DNA of 50,853 nucleotides from Escherichia phage BEBK14 (MN158214.1); one strand, 5' to 3'. Positions 336 through 42,021 are shown, numbered from the stretch's first letter. Numbers and translations are program-made. The notes: a model not told the origin generated them from the sequence alone.

Positions 336-1454
336 TTATTTCTCTGCCATCTCAGGATAAAACATAAATCTTCCGATTTCGCCGTGTTCTTTGTCGTAAA
401 TGATAACCGCAGCACGGCGACGGGAACGCCAACCGCCTCGCGCGGCGTATGCGTCTTTAGCTGCCATCGTGCTATGTACTTCAACAATGCCGAGCGATGT
501 TTCTGTTACAGTCTGATGATGAAAATGCCCTACGTGCGCATACATCGTTTTTGAGTTGCCGAAGTCCTCCCGCCAGTCTGCCGCGCACATCATTAGCAAT
601 GTTTCCGGCTTGCGGACGGTGTGACCGTGATGATATGCAAGGAAGGTTTTTCCGTACTGCGTATGGTGAACCACTCGCGGCGATACATCAACGTAAACGC
701 GCGGCTCTTTTTCATATGCCGCCGCCATAGCTGCACGTAACCAGATCATGCCGCTTTGGTCATGGTTTCCCTCAATTATCTGGATCTCTACTTCTTTGTG
801 TTTTTTGAGCATCAACTCAATGGCACGACGGACGGCGCGGATTGCCACGTAAACCAATTTTGCGTATCGGCTATCTTGATCCAGGACGTGACCGCTTGCA
901 GGCGTTACTGCTTCCAGGCCGTCACTATGAAGCATGTCACCCCCAATCAGTAGCACAGCTTTCTCGCTGAACGGTGCACAGGCCACAGCATAATCGAAAA
1001 AGTCATTCATTACTTTCTCAGCCGTGGAAGTATCCCAATTCTCGCCGCATTCGTGTTTGTGCGCCATAGCTCCCAGGTGCATATCAAAAACGGGGTAAAG
1101 GGCAAGGCTTTCGCTGTATTCGCTCGCTTCTTCCGGTGTCGGATCTACTCGCGGCAATTCTTCGGTAAAAGCGTCCATAGCTGCACGCATCAACGCTTCC
1201 AGTTGCTCTTTGTCCTTACTGGTCTTTGTCCATTTGACGATCACGTTACCTTCTTTGTCGGTCATGACCGATTCACCGTGAACACCAAAACCAGGAGTTC
1301 CGATGGTTGATATTTTACCCTGTTTTGCCAGTCGTGCCGCTCGGCGCTCGACGCTACGAACGTTAAGGCCGTATTCCTCAGCAATCTGACGATAGCTCTT
1401 ACCCTTTAATCGCTCATGCGTGAATTGCTCGTCCGTTATCTTGCTCTGACTCAT
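336..1454 (-). CDS. HTH domain + calcineurin-like metallophosphoesterase
   Basis: N-terminal HTH-like segment (SYRQIAEEYGLNVRSVERR); metallophosphatase-like motifs GDMLHSDG, GNHD, HHGH in translation. Confidence 0.55.
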   Translation of the reverse strand: MSQSKITDEQFTHERLKGKSYRQIAEEYGLNVRSVERRAARLAKQGKISTIGTPGFGVHGESVMTDKEGNVIVKWTKTSKDKEQLEALMRAAMDAFTEELPRVDPTPEEASEYSESLALYPVFDMHLGAMAHKHECGENWDTSTAEKVMNDFFDYAVACAPFSEKAVLLIGGDMLHSDGLEAVTPASGHVLDQDSRYAKLVYVAIRAVRRAIELMLKKHKEVEIQIIEGNHDQSGMIWLRAAMAAAYEKEPRVYVDVSPRVVHHTQYGKTFLAYHHGHTVRKPETLLMMCAADWREDFGNSKTMYAHVGHFHHQTVTETSLGIVEVHSTMAAKDAYAARGGWRSRRRAAVIIYDKEHGEIGRFMFYPEMAEK

Positions 1455-7183: not shown

Positions 7184-9145
7184 ATGGCAATTTATCGCAA
7201 AGGTCAAGCGTCAATGGACGCTCAAGGCTATATAACTGGCTACGGGACGAACTGGCGTGAGCAGTTAACGCTGATCCGTTCCGGCGCAACCATTATTTTT
7301 CTGACTCAGCCGCTACAGGCCGCAGTTATCACCGAAGTGGTCAACGATACTAGCATTCGAGCAATCACCACTGGTGGTGCTGTTGTTCCCCGTTCAGACT
7401 ACATAATCTTGCTTCATGACTCGTTAACTGTTGATGGCCTGGCGCAAGACGTAGCGGAAACATTGCGCTACTACATGGGGAAAGAGTCGGAGCTTGCTGG
7501 ATTTATTGAGATCATCAAGGATTTTGATTGGGATAAGTTACAGAAGATCCAAGAAGACGTAAAGACAAATGCTGACGCAGCAGCAGCAAGCCAGCAGGCA
7601 GCTAAAACCAGCGAGAATAACGCGAAGACAAGCGCAACAAATGCAGCGAATAGCAAGAAAGGCGCTGATACTGCAAAGGCTGCCGCTGAATCCGCGCGCG
7701 ACGCTGCAAACACTGCAAAGACTGGCGCTGAAGCAGCAAAGTCTGGCGCTGAATCCGCGCGTGACGCTGCGAACACTGCAAAGGCAGGAGCTGAAAGTGC
7801 GCGAGATCAAGCGGAGGAATACGCAAAGCAGGCCGCAGAACCTTACAAGGACTTATTGCAACCGTTGCCGGACGTGTGGATACCATTTAATGATTCCCTG
7901 GATATGATTACCGGATTCTCGCCGTCATACAAAAAGATTGTCATAGGTGATGATGAGATCACGATGCCAGGTGACAAGATTGTTAAGTTTAAACGTGCAT
8001 CAACCGCTACTTACATTAACAAATCAGGTGTTTTTACAGTTGCAGCAATTGATGAACCACGTTTTGAAAGAGATGGATTGCTGATTGAAGGGCAGAGAAC
8101 AAACCATATGATTAATGCTTCAACTCCTGCTGGTTGGGGTCGCTCAGCTTCTGTGCAAGTGACAGCGAATACAGATTCATTTGGATTTCTTTATGGTCGC
8201 TTCGCTCCAGATCAGTCTACTGTTGGCAAAACAGATGCGCTAAACCTTGCATCTGTTATTTCTAATCACAGCCTTGATACATCTGGCAATGAAAAAAATG
8301 TTACTGCTTCATGCAGATTTAGATCAGATAAAGATGTTAGATTGAGGGTAAGATTTGCCGCTGGCGATGATATTGGTAGTATAGCATTCGCTGGAGATGC
8401 TTACATAAAACTTAAAGATCTTTCAGTTCAAAAAACTGGAGGTGCTGCAAACAGAATTAATGTTGAGGTTTACACTGATGATCTTGCTGGATGGAATATT
8501 GCAATTGTTACATTCCAGGCAATAAAAAATAAGGTAAACGCTCAGTTTCAAATATCTCCAGTCTCTGCTTATGCCGAAGGTGATTATCTTGAATTGTCAA
8601 CCCCTCAAGTTGAATTGGGATCTGGTGCTTCTTCTTATATTCAATCAGGTACGACACCAGCCACAAGGGCAAGCGATATGGTTACAGTGCCAATAAAAAA
8701 CAACCTTTACAATTTGCCGTTTACAGTTCTTGTGGAGGCTCATAAAAACTGGAGTAGAACGCCAAATGCTGCGCCTCGTGTTTTCGATACTGGAGGTCAT
8801 CAATCTGGTGCGGGAATTATTCTTGCTTTCGGGTCTGCCGAAGGCGATGCTGATGGATTCCCTTATTGCGATATAGGTAAATCAAACAGAAGGGTTAACG
8901 AGAATGCGAAACTAAAAAAGATGATCATAGGAATGAGAGTAAAGAGTGATTACAATACTTGTTGTGTAAGTAATGCCAGAATATCAAGCGAAACAAAAAC
9001 GGAATGGAGATATATAGTATCAACGGCTACTATAAGGATTGGCGGACAAACAAGTACAGGCGAACGCCATCTTTTCGGGCACGTTAGAAACTTCCGTATA
9101 TGGCACAAGGCGCTAACAGATCATCAATTGGGGGAAATTGTTTAA
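7184..9145 (+). CDS. tail fibre protein
   Basis: Ala/Lys-rich coiled-coil repeats (AESARDAANTAK x2) followed by large beta-rich C-terminal domain. Confidence 0.55.
   Translation: MAIYRKGQASMDAQGYITGYGTNWREQLTLIRSGATIIFLTQPLQAAVITEVVNDTSIRAITTGGAVVPRSDYIILLHDSLTVDGLAQDVAETLRYYMGKESELAGFIEIIKDFDWDKLQKIQEDVKTNADAAAASQQAAKTSENNAKTSATNAANSKKGADTAKAAAESARDAANTAKTGAEAAKSGAESARDAANTAKAGAESARDQAEEYAKQAAEPYKDLLQPLPDVWIPFNDSLDMITGFSPSYKKIVIGDDEITMPGDKIVKFKRASTATYINKSGVFTVAAIDEPRFERDGLLIEGQRTNHMINASTPAGWGRSASVQVTANTDSFGFLYGRFAPDQSTVGKTDALNLASVISNHSLDTSGNEKNVTASCRFRSDKDVRLRVRFAAGDDIGSIAFAGDAYIKLKDLSVQKTGGAANRINVEVYTDDLAGWNIAIVTFQAIKNKVNAQFQISPVSAYAEGDYLELSTPQVELGSGASSYIQSGTTPATRASDMVTVPIKNNLYNLPFTVLVEAHKNWSRTPNAAPRVFDTGGHQSGAGIILAFGSAEGDADGFPYCDIGKSNRRVNENAKLKKMIIGMRVKSDYNTCCVSNARISSETKTEWRYIVSTATIRIGGQTSTGERHLFGHVRNFRIWHKALTDHQLGEIV
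7685..7783. repeat. 63-bp period direct repeat inside tail-fibre gene
   Basis: GCTGAATCCGCGCG(C/T)GACGCTGC(A/G)AACACTGCAAAG at 7685..7720 and 7748..7783. Confidence 0.7.
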
Positions 9146-9423
9146 TGCGTGATTTAACATTAAAATTTGCAGACAAGGCCGATTTTTCGGCCTTTTTAGG
9201 AAAAATTAATTGGGATGATAACGAATCCATTCAGGATGCAATCCTGCTCGATGTAATCGGCAATACTTACACAGTAATTGCACGATCTGACGATGGCGAT
9301 GAGATTGCGCGAAAGAACGACGGCTATTTCGTCAATGTGCGAATCATTGATGATAAGTTTGATGCCGTAATTTTTAACGGCTACGTGGTTGAGTTAGATC
9401 AGCCGATTAGAGAATGGGCTTAA
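9145..9423 (+). CDS. hypothetical protein (fibre-associated?)
   Basis: ATG overlaps stop of fibre gene (TAATG). Confidence 0.4.
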   Translation: MRDLTLKFADKADFSAFLGKINWDDNESIQDAILLDVIGNTYTVIARSDDGDEIARKNDGYFVNVRIIDDKFDAVIFNGYVVELDQPIREWA

Positions 9424-37386: not shown

Positions 37387-37625
37387 TTATTAACAACAAG
37401 CAAACGAAGGCGTGATTTGCGGAATCGGTGCGCTGTTTTCGCATACATTGCCGCCGAACTGTATCGGGCAAACTCCATAGCGAACAGGCCGAATGAATCC
37501 TCTGTCAGATATTCCCAGCGACCGCGCCAGGTGCTACGACGTTGCAGATAGTAAACCTTGCATTCAGTGCAACACACGATCCGGTATTCTGGACGAATAA
37601 GCCGCTTTAGTGCATTGATAACCAT
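37374..37625 (-). CDS. hypothetical protein
   Basis: 83-aa ORF. Confidence 0.35.
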   Translation of the reverse strand: MVINALKRLIRPEYRIVCCTECKVYYLQRRSTWRGRWEYLTEDSFGLFAMEFARYSSAAMYAKTAHRFRKSRLRLLVVNKCDV

Positions 37626-37724
37626 AATCCAAACCTCAAACAGTGAAAAATTAACAGAACGAATAGTATCACAGCCATCGCCTTATGAAAATCAAATGGC
37701 GGCTTTGGATTAGTCGAATCGACG

Positions 37725-38120
37725 TTATTTGCCAGCATTGCGCGCTATCCCCTGGTAGGTTTTGTAAAAATCATCGCCAGTCTTCTTGAACTTACAGGCG
37801 TTGCGAGCAAGTCGGCGCATACGTCGCGCATCGTATCTGGCATTCTGGAATGGAGTTTTCATGGTCTTTACGTGGCAGCCGCGATGGTTGCGAATGCGTT
37901 TAAGGTCTGCAATCACCCCCTTAGTAGACTTGATCACATAGTTGTCGAACCCCAGTCGATCGGTAATGATATAGCCAAACTTAATGCGCGGACGTTTAAT
38001 CGTCATGCCAATGTAACGTGATTGAACTGTTACAACCTCTCCTTTACGAAGACCGCTTTTTTCGTCTGCCCAGGTTACGCGAAATTTTGTTCCGATGCGG
38101 ATATTGTTAAGCTCTAACAT
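37725..38120 (-). CDS. hypothetical protein
   Basis: ATG preceded by box copy and TATAAT. Confidence 0.4.
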   Translation of the reverse strand: MLELNNIRIGTKFRVTWADEKSGLRKGEVVTVQSRYIGMTIKRPRIKFGYIITDRLGFDNYVIKSTKGVIADLKRIRNHRGCHVKTMKTPFQNARYDARRMRRLARNACKFKKTGDDFYKTYQGIARNAGK

Positions 38121-38178
38121 TGTTGATTCCTATGTTTACTGAACGGGGTAAATTATAGCGGAGCATTGCGCCCCGCGT

Positions 38179-38195
38179 TTAGCAATTCGTGCTAT
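38179..38195 (-). promoter_or_regulatory. 17-bp box copy (variant CGAATTGCTAA)
   Basis: contains TAG stop of kinase gene; TATAAT at 38152..38157, 21 bp downstream. Confidence 0.5.
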
Positions 38196-38782
38196 TTGAT
38201 TTTTGTGAAATACCACTGCACGGTTTCGATGATTTCCTCTACCGTCTTTTCTGGCTCGCCATCGTGCAATGTGAAATCGTAATGCTTGAGGCGGTGATGA
38301 TAGTCGCCCATGTCGATATAGTTTCGCGAGTCGCCATCGAACGTGTACCCCTCGCGATGCAGTCGGCAAATGTGCACTTTGTGACCTGCTTTAATCAGTG
38401 GCTTGATTTCTTCTGGAAAGCCGCCGTCTGTTACGATAATTGCAAGGTCGCGGTACATTTCGTGAATCTGCTCAACCATTCTCCAGCCGAAATACTGTTC
38501 CCCAAATGCTGGCTTCATTACCTCCTCGCTAATCCAGATCATGAACTGGCGCGGTGATTTTCCCTGCAATATCACCTGAGGCTTTTCTTTCTGTTCCCGG
38601 TCGTTGTACAAGTCCATAAATTCATCGTATCTGTACACACCAAGCATGGAGAACGCAATATCGAACATTGGCTGTTTGAATGATGCCTTAACTGCTGGGT
38701 ATCGGTGTCCGGTAAGGTATGCCGCAATGGTGTCCTTTCCCACTCCAGGTGGCCCATTCAGGATAATGATGTCTCTTTTCAT
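38192..38782 (-). CDS. P-loop kinase (polynucleotide/nucleotide kinase-like)
   Basis: Walker A GPPGVGKDT near N-terminus, 196 aa; stop TAG lies inside box copy. Confidence 0.55.
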   Translation of the reverse strand: MKRDIIILNGPPGVGKDTIAAYLTGHRYPAVKASFKQPMFDIAFSMLGVYRYDEFMDLYNDREQKEKPQVILQGKSPRQFMIWISEEVMKPAFGEQYFGWRMVEQIHEMYRDLAIIVTDGGFPEEIKPLIKAGHKVHICRLHREGYTFDGDSRNYIDMGDYHHRLKHYDFTLHDGEPEKTVEEIIETVQWYFTKIK

Positions 38783-39105
38783 TTTCTGCTCTCCACAAAA
38801 GTAATAGTCTCAACAAGTTTTGGATTAATCATGTCGCTTCGTCTAGGCTCTATGCTTGAGTCTTTATGCAAGCATCGGCCTTGCATAGCAATTTTATCTG
38901 CAAACTTTTTGCGCACACAGTCGAAGCTGTATTCATCCAGCTCTACGTTGTAGGCGACGTCTTCGCCATCAATGGACTCAATAGCGAATAGTGAATCCCT
39001 CATGTCGATTCTGTCTATGGCCTGGAATATTTCAATTTTGCGTGTCATTTCTTCGTCTCCTCGTCTGCTGTAACAACATGAATGCTGATTTCTTCCCTTG
39101 AGCAA
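38779..39105 (-). CDS. hypothetical protein
   Basis: 108-aa ORF. Confidence 0.35.
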   Translation of the reverse strand: MLKGRNQHSCCYSRRGDEEMTRKIEIFQAIDRIDMRDSLFAIESIDGEDVAYNVELDEYSFDCVRKKFADKIAMQGRCLHKDSSIEPRRSDMINPKLVETITFVESRK

Positions 39106-39239
39106 CCGAAATCAACAACGGTTTTTAGTGCCTCGACTCGCTCTATGAATGCCTCGCCATTTTCGATCTTGTCTGCAAGGTCGCGCAAGTAGTTAACTGC
39201 TTTTTCCTGCAATGGATGCATTGATGGAAGTTTATACAT
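39045..39239 (-). CDS. hypothetical protein
   Basis: 64-aa ORF. Confidence 0.3.
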   Translation of the reverse strand: MYKLPSMHPLQEKAVNYLRDLADKIENGEAFIERVEALKTVVDFGCSREEISIHVVTADEETKK

Positions 39240-39251
39240 CGGTTTCCTCTA

Positions 39252-39551
39252 TCACTTGCGCGCCATTTTGCGAAGCTGGCGACTTGTTAGTTTGCGCGGA
39301 TCGACTACGTGGCTGGCAACAATTCGGCCTCCTGCAACCAATACTTTATACCAGTGGTTATGGTTGCTTTGTTCCGTTGCATACCATCTAAACATGAAGA
39401 ACGCAGGTGAAATTCTGCCACGAAGAGAAGGTCTGCACTTCCCGCGAGCGTCGCGATACATCGCGATTGAGATGTGGCCTTGATGGTTTACGTGGTAAAG
39501 GTGAACCCCCATCTCGTTTGTGAATTTATAAATCGCGTTACGAACCAACAT
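39252..39551 (-). CDS. hypothetical protein
   Basis: ATG preceded by box copy, TATAGT and GAGGAA RBS. Confidence 0.4.
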   Translation of the reverse strand: MLVRNAIYKFTNEMGVHLYHVNHQGHISIAMYRDARGKCRPSLRGRISPAFFMFRWYATEQSNHNHWYKVLVAGGRIVASHVVDPRKLTSRQLRKMARK

Positions 39552-39609
39552 GATGTTTTCCTCTTTCGTTGTTGATGGGCTTACTATACCGCAAGCCCGA
39601 TAATCTGTT

Positions 39610-39626
39610 TTTGCAAAAAGTGCTAT
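39610..39626 (-). promoter_or_regulatory. 17-bp box copy (variant TTGCAAA)
   Basis: TATAGT at 39583..39588, 21 bp downstream. Confidence 0.5.
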
Positions 39627-39780
39627 TTACGAACGCATAACGCTGTTACATCCTTCCCACTATCTGACATGTGGAGAATAACTTGCTTTCGCGCCTCCTG
39701 GCATCTTGATTCGCCGTGGAACTCCTGCGACTCAATAGCTGCGGAGTTGTAACTTGTGACAAAGATTAAAAGCAACCAAG

Positions 39781-40320
39781 TCATTTTAAACACTCCACGC
39801 CGTGAGATTGCAGGTGAGCGTGTGGCTTGTCGTATTCCGTGACCTGATAGGTTGTGATCCCCAGGCTTCGGAAGTGCTTAACCACATTCGGAGAATCGTC
39901 AAAGGCGCAAACAATGTTGCCCAATCCAATAGCGCGCAAGGCTTCTTCTTTAATAACCGTATCCTTTCGGTTGTCCTCCTGGCGGCGCATGATGATTTCG
40001 TCAAACTTCACGCCGTTCTCATTCAACCATTTGCAGGTTTCATAGCGAACCTCGTCGCTGCGTCCGGTAAGAATAACGACGGCAAAGCCAGATACCCACA
40101 AACCATTGATAACAGCAATCGTGCTCTTAATCGGTGAATCTCCGGCGGCTGCCCTGTTAAATTCGCTCCACGATTCCGTAAGGTGCAAGTTTTCGGTTGG
40201 CAGCAAGTGCAAACGATGCGATCCGTCCGATAGCGTGCCATCCAGATCAACGATAACAATAGGCTTGCTGGTAATTAATTCGTATTTCTTTCCCCATAGT
40301 TCGAAAGTGTATTTTTTCAT
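39781..40320 (-). CDS. HAD-superfamily phosphatase (polynucleotide 3'-phosphatase-like)
   Basis: DxDGT motif (VIVDLDGTLSDG) near N-terminus and downstream HAD-like motifs. Confidence 0.55.
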   Translation of the reverse strand: MKKYTFELWGKKYELITSKPIVIVDLDGTLSDGSHRLHLLPTENLHLTESWSEFNRAAAGDSPIKSTIAVINGLWVSGFAVVILTGRSDEVRYETCKWLNENGVKFDEIIMRRQEDNRKDTVIKEEALRAIGLGNIVCAFDDSPNVVKHFRSLGITTYQVTEYDKPHAHLQSHGVECLK

Positions 40321-40330
40321 ATATTAATCC

Positions 40331-40513
40331 TTAAAATGTTTTATGGATGTATTCAGCAGTAGCCACAAGCAAAATGATCCATCCTGGAATACTGAAGCAG
40401 GTCATAACGAATGAATTATCATAGCTCAGTCTGAATTTATGCCTCGCACAGTGGATAAGCCACGCAAAAAGAAACACAATCCAGCCGAGAACAAGCCGAG
40501 TAAAATCATCCAT
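40331..40513 (-). CDS. small membrane protein
   Basis: hydrophobic 60-aa ORF. Confidence 0.3.
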   Translation of the reverse strand: MDDFTRLVLGWIVFLFAWLIHCARHKFRLSYDNSFVMTCFSIPGWIILLVATAEYIHKTF

Positions 40514-40731
40514 TATTTCACTTCCTCAAATTCAGCAATTACCATCGCGTGCGCCATAACCTTAGTTCCTTCGCCGCCGTTCAGGAACATGCGATGCCCT
40601 TTGCTATTGCTCACGTAAAAAGATCCGGTTGATGATTTCAACTTTTGCGCCGTATAGATTTCACCAGGCGTGAACATGCCAACGCAACCATAACCAACGG
40701 AAACGCATTTCATCTTCTTGTTAACGTACAT
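40513..40731 (-). CDS. hypothetical protein
   Basis: AAGGAG RBS before internal ATG (MYVNKK). Confidence 0.35.
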   Translation of the reverse strand: MYVNKKMKCVSVGYGCVGMFTPGEIYTAQKLKSSTGSFYVSNSKGHRMFLNGGEGTKVMAHAMVIAEFEEVK

Positions 40732-40787
40732 AGTTTTATCTCCTTCGTTGAAAGTGAGGCCATTATACCTGGCCCCACATTTGAGTT

Positions 40788-40804
40788 TTAACAATTCGTG
40801 CTAT
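40788..40804 (-). promoter_or_regulatory. 17-bp box copy (variant CGAATTGTTAA)
   Basis: abuts TAA stop of 40805..41770; TATAAT at 40761..40766, 21 bp downstream. Confidence 0.5.
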
Positions 40805-41770
40805 TTACACTTTGACCTTCCACTTAACCATCGTTCCGCGCTTGATGCTGATCTCACCTGCAACCGTCCGGTTTTTAGCGCCGCCATAGTGAAGCAGGAG
40901 GATAACAACATCATCATGAATTTCGATCGTCTTTGGTGTAGCCGTTAATTCATACCATGTACCATCATCAAGCTGGACTCCTTTTAGCTTAGAGGCAAGC
41001 GGCATTGACTCAATGCGCCCAATAGTAACCACTTCACCTTTTTCGACGCGTACAGTCTTGCAACGGTCGGCTAATGACTGTTTAAACTGATCGCGAAGCT
41101 CGTTTATAGACTCAACTCGCGCCTGCGTTTCGTTAGCAATTGCAGTTTTTAGTTCATCAACCAATTCATGAATTGCTTTACCATTATTTTTAATAGCGTC
41201 TCCATCCTTGTTGATCTTCCAATAATCTGGAATCGAAAAAATGTGTTTTGCAATGTCTTCCACGTAATACACCTTATCTTTTTCATTGTGTGGGTTGAAT
41301 CTATTGTGACCATTAACAAAGAAATCAACTTTTAGCTCTGATTTCTGACCATCGCTATAAACGCCGTTATCTCTTGATGTATATGTTATCGTGCTATCAC
41401 CAGTGGCTCGGAACGTGATCGGATACTTGATATTGTCCACGTTTAAGCACCACAGCTTTTTATAGTCGCATGTTTTCATCTCGACCATAGGAATCTCTGC
41501 GCGTTCCGGCGAGCGCACTGGTAACACTTGGCCTTTATATGGCTTGTAGTGGAGGCTGGTATATCCTGGCATTGCGTAGCCATAGTCTTTAAGGGCGTTG
41601 TAGTGCGTATTGTGTGCATCAATAAAGTGTTCAATCTCAATTGTTGATGGGCTTAGTTTGTCGCTATTCATATCAACCTTATGGCATGTTTTTTCATCGG
41701 TAAAAATGTAATGACCAATGCCGCGAGATTCGAATGTGATCGGGAATTTAATGTCAGCAAGTTTTAACAT
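40805..41770 (-). CDS. hypothetical protein with internal duplication and coiled coil
   Basis: two IKxPITF... repeats in translation; AGGAG RBS; stop TAA abuts box copy. Confidence 0.45.
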   Translation of the reverse strand: MLKLADIKFPITFESRGIGHYIFTDEKTCHKVDMNSDKLSPSTIEIEHFIDAHNTHYNALKDYGYAMPGYTSLHYKPYKGQVLPVRSPERAEIPMVEMKTCDYKKLWCLNVDNIKYPITFRATGDSTITYTSRDNGVYSDGQKSELKVDFFVNGHNRFNPHNEKDKVYYVEDIAKHIFSIPDYWKINKDGDAIKNNGKAIHELVDELKTAIANETQARVESINELRDQFKQSLADRCKTVRVEKGEVVTIGRIESMPLASKLKGVQLDDGTWYELTATPKTIEIHDDVVILLLHYGGAKNRTVAGEISIKRGTMVKWKVKV

Positions 41771-41838
41771 GGTGCTTTCTCCTGATTGGTTTAACAAAAT
41801 TATTTCTGGTTATAGGCCGGATTTTACGGCCTGGATTA

Positions 41839-42021
41839 TTACTTAATTCTTACCTCAACATTAATATCTGCGTTGGGGGCGAATAGCTGCGCCTTGCCGT
41901 TAACGCGAATGGTGAGAATGTTCTCTTTGCGGCAGTTATCCAGCACCAGGCGATATTTGCCAGCAAACTTAACCATCATTCCCGGTTTGACTTCGCTCAT
42001 TTTGATGATTTTATCCATCAT
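41839..42021 (-). CDS. hypothetical protein
   Basis: 60-aa ORF after ~200-nt GC-rich leader. Confidence 0.35.
   Translation of the reverse strand: MMDKIIKMSEVKPGMMVKFAGKYRLVLDNCRKENILTIRVNGKAQLFAPNADINVEVRIK

Follow-up and report, generated by a model that had tools for sequence, protein, structure and literature searches.

Escherichia phage BEBK14 (MN158214.1) carries, on the minus strand, a gene for a P-loop kinase (38192..38782) and a gene for a HAD phosphatase (39781..40320). Are these the two halves of a polynucleotide kinase-phosphatase of the T4 type (Pnkp), or do they belong to nucleotide metabolism? The window, i.e., the whole stretch of 50,853 nucleotides analysed here, is essentially a complete genome of a T1-like (Drexlerviridae) coliphage. 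A first-pass annotation had described the two genes as a split Pnkp that works without a phage ligase, perhaps in tRNA repair, and had given a nucleotide-metabolism pair as the fallback. The genes are indeed as described there: the kinase is an open reading frame (ORF) of 196 aa starting with MKRDIIILNGPPGVGKDT (Walker A), and the phosphatase has 179 aa and contains IVIVDLDGTLSD (VDLDGT, the DxDGT motif). Both are well supported, with 298 and 546 database homologues, respectively. Of the two functional proposals, it is the fallback that fits best.

Annotations of T1-like phages routinely include both genes, and that the two occur together is already in the literature. In close relatives the kinase is called "deoxynucleoside monophosphate (dNMP) kinase" and the HAD protein "polynucleotide kinase". 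In many Drexlerviridae, the genes for "PNK" and the dNMP kinase follow a DNA repair exonuclease, and an enhanced nucleotide supply has been proposed (PMC13164509, 2026). What is new here is the conservation of the gene order across phage families, a three-gene cassette, natural fusions of the two proteins and the misannotation of the phosphatase.

Relatives of the phosphatase and the kinase

The HAD protein matches the Pfam family HAD_PNKP (PF25109) with 75.5 bits (cut-off 27.6, E 6e-21, profile positions 3-140 of 143) and phrog_415 with E 1e-65. A search of the PDB with the profile of its family puts the phosphatase domains of Capnocytophaga Pnkp1 (4xrp, E 3e-14) and T4 Pnkp (5uj0, 1ltq) first among the solved structures. 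In hhalign the family aligns to residues 201-298 of T4 Pnkp with 96% probability, and T4 Pnkp matches the window solely via its residues 152-300. The AlphaFold2 model has a mean predicted local distance difference test (pLDDT) score of 76, with a confident core and poorly modelled residues 29-59; its closest structures in Foldseek are the T4 Pnkp phosphatase and Pnkp1.

The phosphatase domain of T4 Pnkp (PseT; PDB 1LTQ, 5UJ0) belongs to the same HAD/DxDxT family PF25109. In the alignment, D165, D167, T169, R176, D187 and S211 of T4 Pnkp correspond to D25, D27, T29, R36, D61 and T85 of the HAD protein, and R213, D254, K258, D277 and D278 to R87, D120, K124, D141 and D142. All 11 positions are invariant or nearly so across the HAD family. 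Thus the nucleophile, the acid-base Asp, the Mg2+ ligands, the Ser/Thr and Lys contacts to the phosphate and the Pnkp-specific Arg and Asp residues are shared. We take R176, D187, R213 and D254 to be essential residues of T4 Pnkp. Catalytic roles have been described for D165, D167, S211, K258 and D278, and the T4 enzyme hydrolyses 3'-dTMP at 24 per second while 3'-ribonucleoside monophosphates are not hydrolysed (PMC3592404).

Judged by its sequence, the HAD protein is a stand-alone Pnkp-type HAD (DxDxT) phosphatase. The name "polynucleotide kinase" is a misnomer, as the protein has no kinase domain. This corrects the annotation "polynucleotide kinase" or "kinase-phosphatase" in hundreds of genomes of T1-like phages, Webervirus, Kagunavirus and podophages. 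In contrast to T4 Pnkp, the HAD protein is not fused to a Pnk kinase, it has no RNA ligase partner and the neighbouring kinase is from another family. It also adds an N-terminal beta-hairpin, a flap after motif I (residues about 30-60) that is about 14-20 residues longer, and a conserved His-rich C-terminal tail, KPHAHLQSHGVE. The flap is highly conserved yet has a low pLDDT.

Close relatives of the HAD protein (84-97% identity; P0122, P0123, P0137, P0149 and P0154) have 206-264 aa. The longer relatives carry C-terminal modules that are absent from the copy in the window, one of them a domain of ~57 aa (ITKRARFVGSKDSL...DGDFVNA), and some have a Cys-rich CxxxC...CxxC insert at the C-terminus. 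The C-terminus (window 39781-39800) appears to be a hot spot of domain gain and loss. An N-terminal extension in the 236-aa homologues was considered and rejected, as the extra domain is C-terminal.

The kinase contains the motifs GKDT (Walker A), SFKxPMF, NDRExKE, SPRxFMIWISE, DGGF and GDSRNY (lid). It matches phrog_139 with E 2e-50, and the same PHROG holds the dNMP kinases T4 gp1 (E 2e-65) and T5 Dnk (E 1e-51), while nothing in NCBIfam came near the cut-off. The nearest fold is that of T4 gp1, i.e., a P-loop core with a helical nucleoside monophosphate-binding subdomain and a lid. The structural neighbours in BFVD are mostly annotated as dNMP kinases, one of them fused to a nucleoside deoxyribosyltransferase. 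Compared with T4 gp1 and T5 Dnk (1DEK; PF21448; phrog_139), the kinase is about 45-55 residues shorter and lacks the gp1 insertion.

Essential residues of T4 Pnk are K15, S16, D35, R38, D85 and R126, where D35 is the general base and R38 clamps the 3'-phosphate (PMC2831316). In hhalign the likeness of the kinase family to T4 Pnkp is confined to 25 columns at the P-loop. Twenty residues past the P-loop Lys, the kinase has an invariant Lys36 and not the Asp35 of Pnk, and the D-x-x-R motif is absent. In the gp1 structure 1DEK, the dNMP is contacted at the phosphate by K37, R68, R132 and R177, at the sugar by M135 and at the base by D175, E181 and T140 (PMC10653934). We mapped this list onto the kinase by sequence alignment and not by superposition. 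R68, R132, M135, W152, D175, E181 and R197 of 1DEK are kept in the kinase family as R62, R78, M81, F98, D119, E125 and R140, and T140 is replaced by E86. The family also differs from gp1 in an invariant D-G-G-F for D-x-R, in an extra invariant Arg in the GDSRNY lid and in the position of the phosphate-contact Lys, with an invariant K36 near F40.

As several acceptor residues of gp1 are kept, others are changed, and Asp35 and Arg38 of Pnk have no counterpart, the kinase is best classed as a short, divergent relative of the phage dNMP kinases and not of Pnk. The proposed split Pnkp therefore holds for the phosphatase half and for the functional linkage (see below) and fails for the kinase half; the PHROG profile, unlike that of Pfam DNMK, places the kinase with T4 gp1 and T5 Dnk. 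The active-site signature is identical in all the gene neighbourhoods described below for kinases without this HAD, which argues for one common activity. A role of D-G-G-F as a functional switch of the HAD-linked copies was rejected, as the motif is family-wide and includes copies in dUTPase, ribonucleotide reductase (RNR) and ThyX contexts. The "dNMP kinase" of the retron and DefensePredictor literature was also set aside: this name refers there to T7 gp1.7 or to bacterial defence genes, not to the short kinase family.

Two further observations concern kinase relatives. The annotation of the BFVD entry A0A7S6HV70 (Escherichia phage JEP1, 518 aa), a member of the family, includes a DOD-type homing endonuclease domain. 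This would point to kinase genes that, in some phages, are interrupted by an intein or a homing endonuclease. In addition, MG065643 (E6), MG065636 (A16a) and about 20-39 further records labelled as phages of Campylobacter jejuni are ~50-kb T1-like genomes with a kinase 86-87% identical to that of the window (protein, tblastn). These are probably contaminants or have mislabelled hosts.

Gene order, fusions and the phrog_704 cassette

By tblastn, the kinase has matches in 1467 phage records and the HAD protein has matches in 2997; the HAD count takes in fused Pnkp enzymes. We scanned about 160 IMG/VR and GenBank loci with hidden Markov models of both families. Wherever both genes are present, the HAD gene is upstream of the kinase gene on the same strand, and all 80 loci that were seeded with the HAD have the kinase downstream. 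The gap between the genes varies from -1 nt to about 2.2 kb and is 1007 nt in the window. Among the IMG/VR loci with both genes (n=148, not deduplicated), it is at most 10 nt in 57 and more than 700 nt in 60. The two genes overlap by 4 nt in the Klebsiella Webervirus KpV522 and in the Aeromonas podophage LAh1 (Autographiviridae), and such overlaps recur in at least four phage groups. In other lineages the genes overlap or are 2-190 nt apart. Therefore, the four small ORFs that separate them in the window can be seen as insertions into an ancestrally adjacent pair.

The association extends to single polypeptides. An exhaustive profile search (4200 representatives, E <=1e-3) identified two divergent fusion proteins, P0255 (403 aa) and P0265 (461 aa), with an N-terminal HAD_PNKP domain, a C-terminal kinase and a common linker motif, GPELHG. 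P0255 was found on phage contigs from two independent samples, with a phrog_704 gene immediately downstream. The fusion of locus L177 lies at 8001-9212 of a 60.8-kb contig (Logan ERR14657200). As far as our searches show, a HAD phosphatase fused to a gp1-like kinase is an undescribed bifunctional architecture.

Both fusions have the order phosphatase then kinase, as in mammalian PNKP. Mammalian PNKP and bacterial Pnkp1 (Capnocytophaga Pnkp1-Rnl-Hen1, 4XRP) likewise combine a HAD 3'-phosphatase with a P-loop kinase; however, their kinase is of the Pnk type, which phosphorylates 5'-OH ends and has an Asp as the general base, and the phage kinase is not. The T4-type enzyme is one polypeptide with a partner RNA ligase in the genome, whereas the genes in the window are separate and have no such partner, and the fusions found elsewhere use the gp1-like kinase.

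Could the two genes nevertheless be unrelated neighbours, brought together by the clustering of DNA-metabolism genes? The kinase would then act in dNMP salvage and the HAD protein would separately repair 3'-phosphate DNA ends during replication or recombination. In the window the genes are separated by 1 kb and four unrelated ORFs, the kinase occurs without this HAD in 4E8, OY1, ULIP33 and Y2, and the T4 homologues of both are at distant loci. However, the invariant order, the kinase downstream of every HAD seed, the recurrent 4-nt overlaps and two divergent fusions with a shared conserved linker make this very improbable. The conserved order, the 4-nt overlaps and the natural fusions are strong support for a joint function of the two genes.

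A third gene often belongs to the unit. Pectobacterium phage PP99 has overlapping ORFs for exonuclease, endonuclease VII, phrog_704, HAD, kinase and DNA ligase, in this order. Raoultella phage RP180 (Guernseyvirinae) has a phrog_704-HAD-kinase cassette in the opposite orientation among tail genes. The phrog_704 gene immediately precedes the HAD gene in PP99, RP180 and KpV522, and in L177 it immediately follows the fusion. In the window, the homologue of this phrog_704 "DNA repair exonuclease" is found elsewhere, at 348..1454 (minus strand), and its protein is 62% identical to KpV522 gp58 (E 6e-156, tblastn). We regard the pair in the window as a derived, dispersed copy of a widespread cassette consisting of phrog_704, HAD, the short gp1/Dnk-type kinase and, where encoded, a DNA ligase. 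The copy is called dispersed because its phrog_704 homologue is about 37 kb from the pair.

The phrog_704 protein contains an N-terminal sigma70-region-4-like helix-turn-helix and metallophosphoesterase motifs (DxH, GD, GNHDE and GHxH). Searches against the PDB and NCBIfam were uninformative, i.e., a solved relative is not detectable by sequence. An assignment as the ligase-associated endonuclease PdeM (15.9 bits, far below the cut-off) was not used. The phrog_704 gene accompanies the HAD-kinase pair in phages of several families and is a candidate for a function in the host-DNA degradation of T1.

Deoxynucleotide salvage or end healing

On balance, we lean towards a DNA-breakdown and deoxynucleotide-salvage couple, in which a Pnkp-type 3'-phosphatase feeds a dNMP kinase. 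The functions of both enzymes are inferred, including which substrates they use, whether the phosphatase is specific for 3' ends and how the pair is tied to host-DNA recycling. The HAD enzyme would form a phosphate intermediate at Asp25, with Asp27 as the acid-base, Asp25 and Asp142 holding Mg2+ and Thr85 and Lys124 contacting the phosphate. It would strip 3'-phosphates from 3'-phosphorylated DNA fragments, deoxynucleoside 3',5'-bisphosphates or 3'-dNMPs. With ATP, the kinase would then convert 5'-dNMPs into deoxynucleoside diphosphates, which host Ndk and DNA polymerase III could use for phage DNA synthesis. The phage of the window encodes no polymerase or ligase. The lack of a ligase had been noted before and stands: queries with T4 DNA ligase, Rnl1, Rnl2 and two podophage DNA ligases gave no significant tblastn or phmmer match. 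The annotation of the close relative BabyEgg lists primase, helicases, exonucleases, Erf, SSB and methylases, while ligase and polymerase are absent.

T1 and TLS degrade host DNA and reuse its nucleotides, and the authors of the TLS study could not identify the genes responsible (PMC11447400). The HAD-kinase unit, often with phrog_704, provides candidate genes for this early degradation and reuse.

The neighbours of kinases that occur without this HAD also point to nucleotide metabolism. In Erwinia Y2 the kinase is next to ligase and dUTPase, in BUCT696 next to ligase and RNR with a YfbR-like HD 5'-deoxynucleotidase nearby, in phiWec191 next to an NT5C-type HAD deoxynucleotidase and ThyX, and in K1-ULIP33 and CPP1m next to DNA ligase and a metallophosphoesterase. 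A dNMP kinase is the most economical assignment, considering the neighbours from nucleotide metabolism, the acceptor residues that resemble those of gp1 and the lack of the general base. The same kinase family thus stands beside a nucleotide phosphatase in other nucleotide-metabolism clusters, as in the pairs of rV5-like kinase with NT5C and of BUCT696 kinase with the YfbR-like HD protein; T5 Dnk is paired with Dmp. The phosphatases of these pairs are, however, from other families and are predicted 5'-nucleotidases, while the one studied here is of the Pnkp 3'-phosphatase type.

These pairs also bear on another explanation, namely pool editing or signal removal. Here the HAD protein would act as a (deoxy)nucleotidase on mononucleotides that are unwanted or dangerous to the phage (dUMP, methylated dNMPs set free from host DNA, nucleotides that activate defence), while the kinase pulls the useful dNMPs forward, either as a selective substrate cycle or as counter-defence. 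The pairing of the kinase family with 5'(3')-deoxynucleotidase families (NT5C in phiWec191, YfbR-like HD in BUCT696) is consistent with this, as is the match of the HAD protein to PF03767, the family of class B acid phosphatases and nucleotidases, with 39 bits (cut-off 27). The removal of dNMPs that trigger defence could pay off: m6-dAMP from phage-induced degradation of host DNA triggers a defence system (PMC12871103, 2026 preprint). However, this case is purely circumstantial, and the closest relatives of the HAD protein are 3'-specific polynucleotide phosphatases and not 5'-nucleotidases. None of the proteins of the window matches a PADLOC defence-system model. We consider pool editing quite unlikely. 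The earlier idea of a tRNA-repair counter-defence is unsupported, as an RNA ligase and PADLOC matches are absent and ARAGORN found no tRNA genes in the window.

Several points weigh against salvage. The kinase does not match Pfam DNMK (PF21448) at E up to 0.1, and thus stays under the threshold of this family, where T4 gp1 scores 358 bits. Two of the four dNMP-phosphate contacts of gp1 are altered, K37 to F40 and R177 to the invariant G121. The HAD protein has a short flap and no real cap domain, and a capless HAD architecture favours macromolecular substrates. A phosphatase and a kinase that act on the same mononucleotide pool would run a futile cycle unless their specificities differ (3' vs 5'). 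No E. coli or phage nuclease has been identified as a source of 3'-phosphorylated deoxynucleotides, and literature searches found no experimental or biochemical work on either subfamily. Finally, in several podophages the pair or the kinase has a DNA ligase, nucleases and endonuclease VII as neighbours, and these suit DNA-end processing equally well.

These observations lead to the foremost alternative, a PNKP-like pair for the healing of DNA (or RNA) ends, which we consider unlikely. The HAD protein would remove 3'-phosphates, and the gp1-like kinase would have taken on the role of a 5'-OH polynucleotide kinase. The two enzymes and the phrog_704 nuclease would clean broken ends, which would then be sealed by a phage ligase (PP99-type) or by host LigA (T1-like), for example to counter nucleases that leave 3'-phosphate and 5'-OH ends. 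The Pnkp-type HAD domain with all catalytic residues, the PNKP-like domain order of the fusions, the overlapping HAD, kinase and DNA ligase genes of PP99, the ligase beside the kinase in ULIP33, CPP1m, Y2 and BUCT696, the metallophosphoesterase "DNA repair exonuclease" in the cassette and the two lost gp1 contacts would all agree with it; the missing Pnk general base and the gp1-like acceptor site would not. In that case, to which we give a low probability, the HAD protein and the short kinase would be an independently assembled polynucleotide kinase-phosphatase, where an enzyme with the dNMP-kinase fold was recruited to 5'-OH DNA ends. It would be encoded by separate genes in the window, by overlapping genes in many phages and by a single fused gene in some, often with a metallophosphoesterase nuclease and a DNA ligase at its flanks. 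If true, the pair would be a previously unrecognised, widespread phage system of DNA end healing, which in T1-like phages would depend on host LigA and might act against nucleases making 3'-phosphate/5'-OH breaks. P0255 and P0265 offer single polypeptides with which a salvage enzyme could be distinguished from a new end-healing enzyme.

Layout of the locus

Over positions 37500-41900 the window shares 96.7% identity with Escherichia phage BabyEgg (50,849 bp), the closest annotated relative, and 137 phage records match this region. The kinase and HAD genes had been described as separate and three small ORFs apart; they are separate, but four small ORFs of unknown function lie between them (38779..39793, minus strand). 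In the order of transcription these are a signal-peptide-like ORF (39784-39623), a phrog_8382 member (39551-39252) and two further ORFs (39239-39045 and 39047-38779), all on the minus strand. ATGA coupling is present at three junctions: between the HAD stop and the start of the first ORF, between the third and the fourth, and between the fourth and the kinase gene. The space between the HAD and kinase genes is a hot spot of insertion; in the T1-like phage tonijn an HNH endonuclease is located there, and a figure legend on KanT1 likewise places one there.

Directly 3' of the kinase stop there is a terminator-like GC-rich hairpin with a weak T-run (38158..38176, minus strand; a consensus match only). 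In Klebsiella phage KpV522, a rho-independent terminator is annotated 3' of the kinase gene. A promoter scan gave sites rarer than in shuffled sequence and was uninformative on transcription units. The label "early cluster" is plausible from the position, as the genes belong to a series of small ORFs that precede the terminase gene on its strand. Just upstream of the cluster, an ORF of 330 aa (40805-41797, minus strand) belongs to phrog_7116, of unknown function. It aligns to phrog_7116 in two stretches, which suggests an internal duplication, and the BabyEgg version is annotated with 398 aa.

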